DNA from: Escherichia coli | GTDB taxonomy: Bacteria > Pseudomonadota > Gammaproteobacteria > Enterobacterales > Enterobacteriaceae | Assembly: GCF_045037415.1 (NCBI RefSeq) | Contig: NZ_CP173438.1 | DNA: 64,000 nucleotides | Reading direction: 5' to 3' (one strand) | In this document: positions 49,501-52,500 of the stretch, one piece after another | Layout of the letters: the number at the start of each line of letters is the position of its first letter | Position numbering within the stretch: position 1 is the stretch's first letter | Position numbers: made by a program

Positions 49501-52500
49501 CGCCTTATCCAGTGCCTCAGGAATCCCTACACTAGTGGCAAAATCATTGGCAGTTCCTAATGGTAAAATTCCCAGCGCGGGTATGTCATCCCCCTCACAT
49601 TGAATCAATGCCGTAGAAACTTCATTAATGGTGCCATCGCCACCACCGGCAATCACTGTTGCGACGCCTAACTTCCGGGCCTCCTCTACAAATCGTGCAG
49701 CATCGCCTTTCTCCCAGGTGATCCGCACATGGATCGTCATTCCTTCCTCACGCAACAGCATAATTGCTTCGCGCAAGGGTAGATTGTCAGTACTTTTGCC
49801 ATTAAGAATCAGTAAGCTGGCGGGAAATTCTGCCATGATCGTATGTGCCTTTATGATTGGTCTGTAGATAGTGTAGAGCAGAAAAGAAAAGGTGGAGTCA
49901 GAACAGGATGAAAGTCGGAGGATAAAAAGTCAGTTCAGGTATGGGGATTCAGTGCTTACCACCAGGACCTTACAATGGGGACAGCGAATATTAACGGTAG
50001 CCACTGATAAATTTTAAAAAAGAGAATATACCTAATATTCAACTAAACAGTGGCATCTTCAATATACTATTCAAAATATATTAAAGTCCCCCATGGGGTT
50101 ACCCGGAAGGGCCTCTATGTCTGTAATTCCTACTTATGTAGGAAATGTTGTACAGAACATTTATTATAATCCTATTCAATTATAATAATCATGCCATTAT
50201 TATATTTAAACACCAGAGCGTGTCGTTGGTATTTAATGGGGGAAGGTGAGATGAAAAAGATAGCTGCTATATCATTAATTAGTATTTTTCTTATGTCTGG
50301 GTGTGCTGTACATAATGATGAGACAAGTATCGGTAAATTTGGTCTTGCATATAAAAGTAATATTCAGCGTAAACTCGATAACCAATACTACACCGAAGCC
50401 GAAGCTTCTTTAGCCAGGGGCAGAATATCTGGTGCAGAAAATATAGTAAAAAATGATGCAGCCCATTTCTGTGTTACTCAGGGCAAAAAAATGCAGATAG
50501 TTAAATTGAAGACAGAAGGTGCAGGATTACATGGCGTTGCTCGTCTGACATTCAAATGTGGAGAGTGAGAATAGATTCAAGACTACCATGCACATATTTA
50601 TTTTATCTGTGATGGGATATTCTTCAACACCATTATTGAATGTGAGTAATAATGACAAACAGATAGATGAAACTAAAGCAGAATTTTTATTTTATGCAGC
50701 CATCAGAAAATGATGTCAAAAATATTCCAATGCTTTAGGTTCATTTTTTGGTAAGCGTCAAACATGCGCGTTCTGGCTGTGCGTAACCGGAACCTGTGCG
50801 AGCACGATGTCGATAAGTGAAAGGCATCGTGCTATTAAGGGAGATTCTATCGATGTGGTCAATGGAAGACGGTGACCAGGGATAGGGCTTATGCATAAAA
50901 AATAAGCCTGTGTAAGGGAGATTACACAGGCTAAGGAGGTGGTTCCTGGTACAGCTAGCATTTTATGGGTTATGTTTTTCAGCGAAACGGATGATAACCT
51001 TAATAAATGCAGCTGTATGTGATCGGTTTCTAAGAATTTTCCATCCGGGAAAAATAATCGAAATTAATCACTTACCGTGGGGGTTACGCGTGGTTTCCCC
51101 GGAGAAATTACGCATCAGCAGCGCGTAATTTAGCTCAAGATCCTGCGGCACCGGGAGCCACACAGTATAACCATCGCCTGGTGCGACCGGCATAGCTTCA
51201 CCTTTGGCGTTTTCCATGTGCTCAAGGGTAAAGTTAATGTTGCCTTGCGGCGTCATTAGCTCAAGGCTGTCGCCAACGGAGAATTTATTTTTCACCGCTA
51301 CCGCCGCGAGGTCCCCCTTGCGCTCACCGGTAAACTCACCAACAAACTGCTGGCGGTCAGAAACTGAATAACCGTATTCGTAGTTCTGATAATCGTCGTG
51401 AGTATGACGACGCAGGAAACCTTCGGTATAGCCACGATGCGCCAGACCTTCCAGAGTTTCCAGCAGGCTGGTATCGAACGGTTTGCCCGCAGCGGCGTCA
51501 TCGATAGCTTTACGGTAAACCTGCGCGGTGCGTGCGCAATAGTAGAAAGATTTGGTACGGCCTTCGATTTTCAGCGAATGCACGCCCATTTTGGTCAGGC
51601 GTTCAACATGGGCGATGGCGCGCAGATCTTTCGAGTTCATGATGTAAGTGCCGTGCTCATCTTCAAACGCGGTCATATACTCGCCCGGACGCTGGGCTTC
51701 TTCGATCATAAACACTTTGTCGGTTGGCGCGCCGATACCCAGCGTCGGCTCAACATTTTGCACCGGAATCGGCTCGTACTTGTGTACGATGTTGCCAACG
51801 TCATCTTCTTTCCCTTCCTGGACGTTGTACTCCCAGCGGCAGGCGTTGGTGCAGGTGCCCTGGTTCGGGTCGCGCTTGTTGATATAGCCAGAGAGCAGGC
51901 AGCGACCGGAGTAGGCCATGCACAGCGCGCCGTGAACGAAGATTTCGATTTCCATATCCGGCACCTGATTGCGGATCTCTTCAATCTCTTCCAGTGACAG
52001 TTCGCGAGAGAGGATCACGCGGGTCAGGCCCATTTGCTGCCAGAATTTCACCGTCGCCCAGTTCACGGCGTTAGCCTGTACCGAGAGATGGATCGGCATT
52101 TCAGGGAAGTGCTCACGCACCAGCATAATCAGCCCTGGATCGGACATAATCAGCGCATCCGGCCCCATTTCCACCACCGGTTTCAGGTCACGGATAAAGG
52201 TTTTCAGCTTGGCGTTGTGCGGTGCAATGTTGACCACGACATAAAACTTTTTCCCCAGCGCGTGGGCTTCGTTAATGCCGAGTTGAAGATTTTCGTGGTT
52301 GAATTCGTTGTTGCGCACACGCAGGGAGTAACGCGGCTGGCCCGCATAAACAGCATCTGCGCCATAAGCGAAAGCGTAACGCATATTTTTCAGCGTTCCC
52401 GCCGGGGAAAGGAGTTCCGGTTTAAACATAATTCTCTCGTTCTGATGACAGGTCAGATCCGCTTCACCTGATGAAGCGGTCAGGGGAGTGCCCCCACTTT

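Follow-up and report, generated by a model that had tools for sequence, protein, structure and literature searches.

What does the DNA beside a phage attachment site record of earlier occupants of that site, when no prophage is present in it? This question is raised by the cyaR locus in a 64-kb stretch of Escherichia coli DNA (contig NZ_CP173438.1; the whole stretch analysed is hereafter called the window), in which the gene of the small RNA (sRNA) CyaR ends in the attachment core of P2-type phages. The region corresponds to the usual yegQ(trhP)–cyaR–yegR interval of E. coli without a prophage; it is inverted here relative to the K-12 map, and sequence matches of the region showed that it is 100% identical to O25b:H4-ST131 chromosomes. 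We are highly confident that the cyaR gene is present with a CRP-type promoter of class II and that the P2 attachment site is vacant. The sRNA, the type of promoter, the attachment site, and the vacant state are all already known; the DNA that adjoins the core on the yegR side is considered below as a possible trace of an older insertion.

CyaR, its terminator and its promoter

A search with Rfam covariance models (cmscan, Rfam gathering threshold) returned the family RF00112 at 50900..50985 on the minus strand, with a score of 101.8 bits against a cut-off of 47 and an E-value of 3.3e-19, covering positions 1-85 of the 85-position model; no further RNA family was found in the region at the gathering thresholds. 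The ends of the gene (5' at 50983 and 3' at 50897) were set by alignment to cyaR (b4438) of strain MG1655 (NC_000913.3), annotated there as an 87-nt non-coding RNA. The two sequences are identical at 86 of 87 nucleotides, and the sole difference, at position 50909, corresponds to RNA nucleotide 75, which is A here and G in K-12. A preliminary description of the region, made from the sequence alone, had reported an intact 87-nt CyaR and had named a covariance-model search as the check; the call over the full model and the near identity to MG1655 bear this out.

The predicted fold of CyaR has three hairpins, at the 5' end, in the seed region, and at the terminator, the last with an 11-bp stem and a U-run behind it; the fold has a free energy of -20.5 kcal/mol and a z-score of -3.6. 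The C-rich seed loop AGGAACCACCUCCUU occupies RNA nucleotides 37-51, and the terminator hairpin is followed by the U-tail UUAUUUUUU. A terminator-like site at 50932..50905 is the only one in the interval 50400..51200. The 11-bp hairpin with its U-run would act both as the terminator and as the Hfq-binding 3' end of the RNA, Hfq binding being expected by analogy with what has been published on the K-12 gene, which is otherwise identical. The K-12 cyaR (ryeE, b4438), which is activated by cAMP-CRP and is Hfq-dependent, resembles the gene described here in its promoter, its predicted fold, and its neighbours, yegQ/trhP upstream and yegR downstream; the syntenic position downstream of yegQ/trhP is shared with MG1655 and with enterobacterial loci. 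The difference is that the last 18 nt of the K-12 gene are annotated within the cryptic prophage PR-X, whereas the window is free of the prophage.

A CRP-type site had been proposed in the preliminary description about 42 nt upstream of cyaR, in the class II position, and both its presence and its position were confirmed. On the cyaR strand the site reads TTAGA-AACCGA-TCACA; it matches 8 of the 10 consensus bases of TGTGA-N6-TCACA and overlaps the -35 region. The 87 bp upstream of cyaR, up to the stop codon of yegQ/trhP, are identical to MG1655, including the CRP-type site and the -10 hexamer. For a wider comparison, 113 unique promoter sequences from about 118 enterobacterial species, among the matches listed by a pattern scan, were aligned; the columns TTAGAAAC and GATCACATAC are conserved at about 90% or more in these distinct cyaR promoters, while the flanking columns drift, and the -10 hexamer is kept as TAT(C/T)AT. 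A simple sigma-70 scan found no -35/-10 pair at the cyaR promoter and no -35 hexamer. The promoter was not called because it has no -35 match, as would be predicted for a class II activator-dependent promoter.

Control of cyaR by cAMP-CRP is stated in PMC5861431 and PMC9765468, which cite Johansen 2008, Papenfort 2008, and De Lay & Gottesman 2009. By analogy with this published work on the identical K-12 promoter, the gene in the window is expected to be activated by cAMP-CRP: at a promoter with a good -10 and no -35, cAMP-CRP bound at -42.5 would recruit RNA polymerase in the class II manner. Two observations weigh against this assignment. Motifs with up to two mismatches to the CRP consensus occur 18 times in the window, against 26 expected by chance, and the centre of the site lies at -42.5 and not at the textbook -41.5, although this one-base offset depends on the exact start site. 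Since the motif is no rarer than chance, the significance of the site rests on its class II position, its identity to K-12, and its conservation. It is nevertheless extremely improbable that the motif is a chance match and that cyaR is driven by another factor, e.g., sigma-E or CpxR alone, as its unremarkable frequency and the imperfect half-site TTAGA could suggest, given that the site is the same as in a K-12 promoter with published cAMP-CRP dependence (PMC5861431, PMC9765468), that it stays constant between variable neighbouring columns in the 113 promoters, and that the lack of a -35 element is typical of class II activation.

The P2 attachment core at the 3' end of cyaR

The last 27 nt of cyaR, comprising the 3' half of the terminator hairpin and the U-run, constitute the P2-type attachment core. 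In the P2 genome (AF063097), attP is annotated in the order ogr terminator, Int P-arm site, IHF site, 27-bp core AAAAAATAAGCCCGTGTAAGGGAGATT, Cox sites, Int P'-arm site, and int. In strain ARS-C301 and in the record ON470606, deposited as a phage, a P2-like prophage lies exactly at this core in the cyaR locus, with int adjoining the spacer that separates yegR from cyaR; at the other end of the inserted prophage ogr is followed by the P arm and then by the core. Such a placement indicates that integration splits cyaR inside its terminator and rebuilds the gene from phage DNA. A phage with the same 27 bp would recombine within the core, so that cyaR would be remade from phage DNA at attR, and the integrated prophage would then be flanked by cyaR on one side and the yegR spacer on the other. 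Some of the sites used by P2 match the core less well, such as locH with about 20 of 27. The site at cyaR is presumably the one called locI in the P2 literature, an identification that is said to go back to Barreiro and Haggard-Ljungquist in 1992.

In the window, the core is present in a single copy, and the host sequence is continuous across the junction. MG1655 and a K-12-like strain carry a 3' fragment of gene D (yegZ, D') and ogrK between yegR and cyaR, annotated as the cryptic prophage PR-X, in agreement with the arrangement given for K-12 in the preliminary description. Alignment showed that the segment of about 630 bp containing D' and ogrK in the K-12-like strain is absent from the window and not merely diverged there. 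A tblastn search for P2-type Int, C, Cox, Ogr, and D detected none of these proteins in 49800..51000 (best E-value of 0.17), nor in the whole window at E<=1e-3. The P2 site at cyaR and the K-12 PR-X remnant (ogrK and yegZ/D') share with the window the same 27-bp core at the 3' end of cyaR, and prophages of other strains occupy this very position, their int side facing yegR and their ogr side facing cyaR; the window differs in that the site is vacant and the core has one mismatch, T at 50909.

The insertion site has also been recorded in the literature: in the genome paper of E. coli W, cyaR is tabulated as a P2 insertion site holding Wphi2 in strain W, ogr-D' in K-12, P2*B in strain B, and no element in Crooks (PMC3032704). 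Of 5426 complete E. coli genomes, 4190 (about 77%) match a 111-bp probe spanning the spacer, the core, and cyaR without a break. The junction is split in the remaining genomes, of which about 430 have a short, K-12-like insert and about 800 a large insert (estimated by subtraction). The vacant state is therefore the norm, and K-12 is the exception. The earlier statements that P2-remnant genes are missing here and that about 330 bp separate cyaR from yegR (328 bp as measured) were correct. The description of the site as unoccupied stands insofar as neither a K-12-type remnant nor a prophage is present; it should be qualified in that this state is the common one and that the spacer is not untouched host DNA.

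The single mismatch in the core is a polymorphism that extends beyond the window. Position 50909 is T in the window and C in P2, P2_2H1, 720R8, and most E. coli; word-anchored searches of the 5426 genomes found the T variant in 526 and the C variant in 4859, and both states also occur in other genera. With T at this position, a U-G wobble of the K-12 terminator becomes a U-A pair and the stem is fully paired, with a gain of 0.7 kcal/mol in the predicted fold (-20.5 in the window versus -19.8 kcal/mol in K-12). For K-12, terminator readthrough of about 41% is reported when Hfq is absent (PMC9765468). In the 720R8 prophage the crossover point cannot be located from this polymorphism, because attL and attR both carry C. 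An sRNA terminator here doubles as a phage core, and strains differ at one terminator base by carrying either the P2-type core or its variant.

The block between cyaR and yegS

Beyond the core, yegR and its surroundings form a block of low GC content (Table 1). The block is absent in E. whittamii, Escherichia sp. E1V33, and strain E69, where yegS lies within about 100 nt after cyaR. According to blastn, homology to these three block-less lineages stops exactly at the 3' end of cyaR and resumes at window position 49928, and their flanks have wholly different sequence after cyaR, with nothing similar to a P arm.

The part of the block nearest to the core contains a relic of the P-arm binding site of P2-type Int. 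Its first 15 nt, with an intact first repeat, are identical to P2, and its second repeat is degenerate; the arm-like sequence of the cyaR flank is TCGATGTGGTCAATGG. The local alignment score of 38 obtained for the relic was reached by none of 3000 shuffled sequences and by 2 of 3000 random windows. The distance from the relic to the core is 47 nt, compared with 63 nt in P2, because 16 nt are missing where P2 has the annotated IHF site. Since the relic lies inside the 111-bp probe that is unbroken in 4190 genomes, it is widespread in E. coli. P-arm sequence also follows cyaR in loci of Citrobacter, Buttiauxella, Enterobacter, Trabulsiella, E. albertii, and Salmonella, and in the first four of these genera the sequences there are typical P-arm and ogr-terminator ones. 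Given that the block-less Escherichia flanks have no arm-like sequence, the direction of this homology, as read from the sequences, is most likely from phage to host. A metagenome-assembled genome contig labelled as Collinsella sp. (JAIJJM010000051.1) begins with the 3' part of an E. coli-type cyaR, after which come a P2-type P arm and the ogr terminator; enterobacterial prophage DNA seems to have been binned here with an actinobacterial genome.

Two further features accompany the relic in the part of the spacer that is general to E. coli. An exact 11-nt direct repeat, TAAGGGAGATT, is present at 50836..50846 and 50913..50923, so that the right end of the core is copied 77 nt leftward. This copy, which is less similar in Escherichia sp. 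MOD1-EC7003, sits between a hairpin and the P-arm relic, and may be a second, older recombination scar. The hairpin has the same position relative to the P arm as the ogr terminator hairpin in P2 and could be either the terminator of yegR or a relic.

An AT-rich segment of 170 bp lies closer to yegR. Among its carriers are ST131 strains and ATCC 25922 (Seattle 1946), and it is absent from the EC0585, K-12-like, and BAP1 sequences; its occurrence in only a minority of the genomes (Table 1) explains database matches to the region at 81% coverage. Most of it (50620..50743) also occurs in the divergent Escherichia sp. MOD1-EC7003, where the block is rearranged; the segment is therefore probably a part of the original block that most E. 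coli lineages have lost by deletion. Within it lies a 14-nt inverted repeat (50667-80 and 50731-44). A 41-codon open reading frame (ORF) at 50588..50713 is probably spurious, with no Pfam match and a start codon that is not conserved in MOD1-EC7003.

Judging from these sequence comparisons, there is about an even chance that the prophage-free cyaR site is the attR end of an ancient, almost wholly deleted P2-type element that delivered yegR. An old P2-type element, or another element using a P2 integrase, would have integrated at cyaR in the E. coli lineage, and nearly all of it would then have been deleted. The leftovers would be yegR, AT-rich DNA, a part of the P arm, and a working core, the core of this attR still serving as attB. 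The arrival of yegR together with the old element is something that we infer.

A comparable case appears to exist in E. albertii NBRC 107761, in which a 3.4-kb insert (4964..8322 of locus L013) fills the cyaR–yegS slot. It encodes CdtA, CdtB, and CdtC, with the Pfam domains CDtoxinA, Exo_endo_phos, and CDtoxinA. A P2-like arm remnant follows directly after cyaR and phage structural genes are missing, and the insert seems to be a P2-like prophage that has decayed but retained the toxin genes as cargo. The position of cdtABC beside a P2-like arm shows that cargo can outlive the phage at the cyaR site. Like the block in the window, this insert lies between the cyaR terminator and the region upstream of yegS and has retained cargo with the structural genes gone; it differs in carrying a three-gene toxin operon in 3.4 kb, as opposed to the single lipoprotein gene yegR in about 1 kb, and the two inserts have no sequence similarity except in the arm region. 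A 2.8-kb insert occupies the same slot in Salmonella diarizonae.

Several results weigh against an ancient P2-type element as the source of the block. At its left edge (about 49929..49957) the block shares a T-run and about 15 of 21 matches with the rest of the core, which is suggestive only: a test for a degenerate core anchored at this edge gave p ~0.007 versus random 24-mers and ~0.018 versus shuffles, whereas unanchored local alignment to P2 found neither the left core copy nor P'-arm similarity at this end to be significant. No phage coding remnant was detected in the block by tblastn with P2-type proteins. YegR has no homologue in true phage genomes, as a tblastn search of 50,697 phage records returned only two matches, both in records containing E. 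coli chromosomal flank. In a search of 5.8 billion proteins, the YegR family proved to be restricted to Escherichia, apart from a few distant members in non-phage contexts. It is also conceivable that the block was not gained in E. coli and may instead have been lost in the other Escherichia lineages, of which few genomes were sampled, with E. fergusonii outside the sample.

Some of the records met in these searches deserve mention in their own right. Stretches of the E. coli chromosome are present in the "phage" records ON470606.1 and AY639599.1: beyond attL, ON470606 has the spacer, yegR, yegS, and gatR, and AY639599.1, named "Phage TP", consists of a K-12-type yegR-D'-ogrK-cyaR-yegQ interval in which yegQ is annotated as a "putative protease". 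A YegR homologue with 53% identity is encoded in Enterobacter sp. BIDMC 29 (6001..6318 of locus L131), adjoining an omptin and an MFS transporter in an island rich in insertion sequence (IS) and Tn3 transposases, which suggests that the yegR family travels on mobile DNA.

It is possible, though rather unlikely, that the arm similarity and the yegR block are unrelated, yegR having arrived by another route, e.g., through an IS-mediated event or illegitimate recombination, and a separate small P2 remnant having been added later. The distant homologue in the IS-rich island of Enterobacter agrees with such a sequence of events, as do the lack of any phage gene in the block, the weak att evidence at its left end, and the extra 11-nt core copy at 50836..50846, which hints at more than one event. 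Two independent events would nevertheless leave unexplained why the block starts exactly at the core at the 3' end of cyaR, which is predicted by integrase-mediated insertion and not by a random event, and the result of the anchored core test at the opposite boundary (p ~0.01 for a degenerate copy) also speaks for a single integrase-mediated insertion.

We consider it improbable that the spacer is original host DNA at a site that was never occupied, from which P2-type phages took their P arm by an ancient imprecise excision. Where phage att sites overlap the 3' ends of tRNA or sRNA genes, their origin is generally seen in host sequence that a phage captured, and the homologous arm is located just downstream of a gene 3' end, where captured sequence would be expected. 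However, the completely different DNA after cyaR in the block-less Escherichia lineages indicates that arm-like sequence is not the ancestral flank. Moreover, P2 carries the motif in both its P and its P' arm, where it is a functional Int site, while the host has a degenerate copy of the P arm only; in several other genera, cyaR is followed by this P-arm sequence next to an ogr-type terminator hairpin; and the block is AT-rich like foreign DNA.

The features of the locus are listed in Table 1. An ORF for a gatR-like DeoR repressor of 259 aa (window 48076..48855, plus strand) is intact here, while it is annotated as an N-terminally truncated fragment in the K-12-like strain and is interrupted by an IS1 element in the locus of the BL21-derived BAP1. 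Elsewhere in the window, a TPP riboswitch (RF00059, 71.2 bits) was found at 34461..34557 on the plus strand, presumably in the thiMD leader.

Table 1. Features of the cyaR locus, in window coordinates
Feature	Position	Strand	Description	Basis
yegS	48937..49836	-		ORF list, RefSeq annotation of matching genomes
Low-GC block with yegR	49929..50896		968 bp, 37.5% GC versus 50.7% in the window; flanked by the 3' end of cyaR and the ancestral upstream region of yegS	
yegR	50251..50568	+	105-aa predicted lipoprotein, Pfam PF27694 (YegR)	RefSeq annotations of matching genomes, homologue search
Spacer from yegR stop codon to CyaR 3' end	between 50568 and 50897		328 bp	
AT-rich segment	50574..50743		170 bp, about 30% GC; found in 947 of 5426 complete E. 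coli genomes (17%)	
Spacer segment general to E. coli	50744..50896		holds the hairpin, the 11-nt core copy and the P-arm relic	alignment
Hairpin	50803..50833		10-bp stem, GCACGATGyC...GGCATCGTGC; perfect in most E. coli, one mismatch here	
Relic of P2-type Int arm-binding site (P arm)	50850..50877	+	TCGATGTGGTCAATGGAAGACGGTGACC; P2 has TCGATGTGGTCAATGTGTGGACGTGACC	comparison with P2 "protein_bind Int, P arm", 24293-24320
P2-type attachment core (attB)	50897..50923		27 bp, AAAAAATAAGCCTGTGTAAGGGAGATT; 26/27 identical to the P2 attP core	P2 AF063097 annotation, alignments
cyaR (ryeE)	50897..50983	-	sRNA gene, 87 nt	Rfam RF00112, alignment to MG1655
cyaR promoter region	between cyaR and yegQ/trhP		84 bp	
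-10 hexamer	50991..50996	-	TATCAT, at -13..-8	read from sequence
CRP-type site	51018..51033		TGTGA-N6-TCTAA; TGTGA 51018-51022, TCTAA 51029-51033; centre 51025.5, i.e., -42.5 from the annotated 5' end	
yegQ/trhP	51068..52429	-	453 aa; upstream of cyaR, same strand	ORF list, RefSeq annotation of identical matches

Meaning for attachment sites and for yegR

The results confirm the annotation of a well-studied sRNA and of a known hot spot of phage integration, at which K-12 is atypical. What is added to this known locus, namely the single-nucleotide polymorphism of the core, the relic of the arm site, and the probable status of the yegR block as an old scar, is a small refinement and not a discovery. 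If the site is indeed the attR end of an older element, a newly formed attL, consisting of the relic P arm, the core, and the P' arm, would resemble attP because of the Int arm site left 47 nt from the core, and this might influence the integration or excision of P2-type phages. The DNA of an "empty" attachment site can then be the fossil of an earlier insertion, which calls for caution in the prediction of att sites and prophage boundaries and offers a possible origin for the orphan gene yegR.

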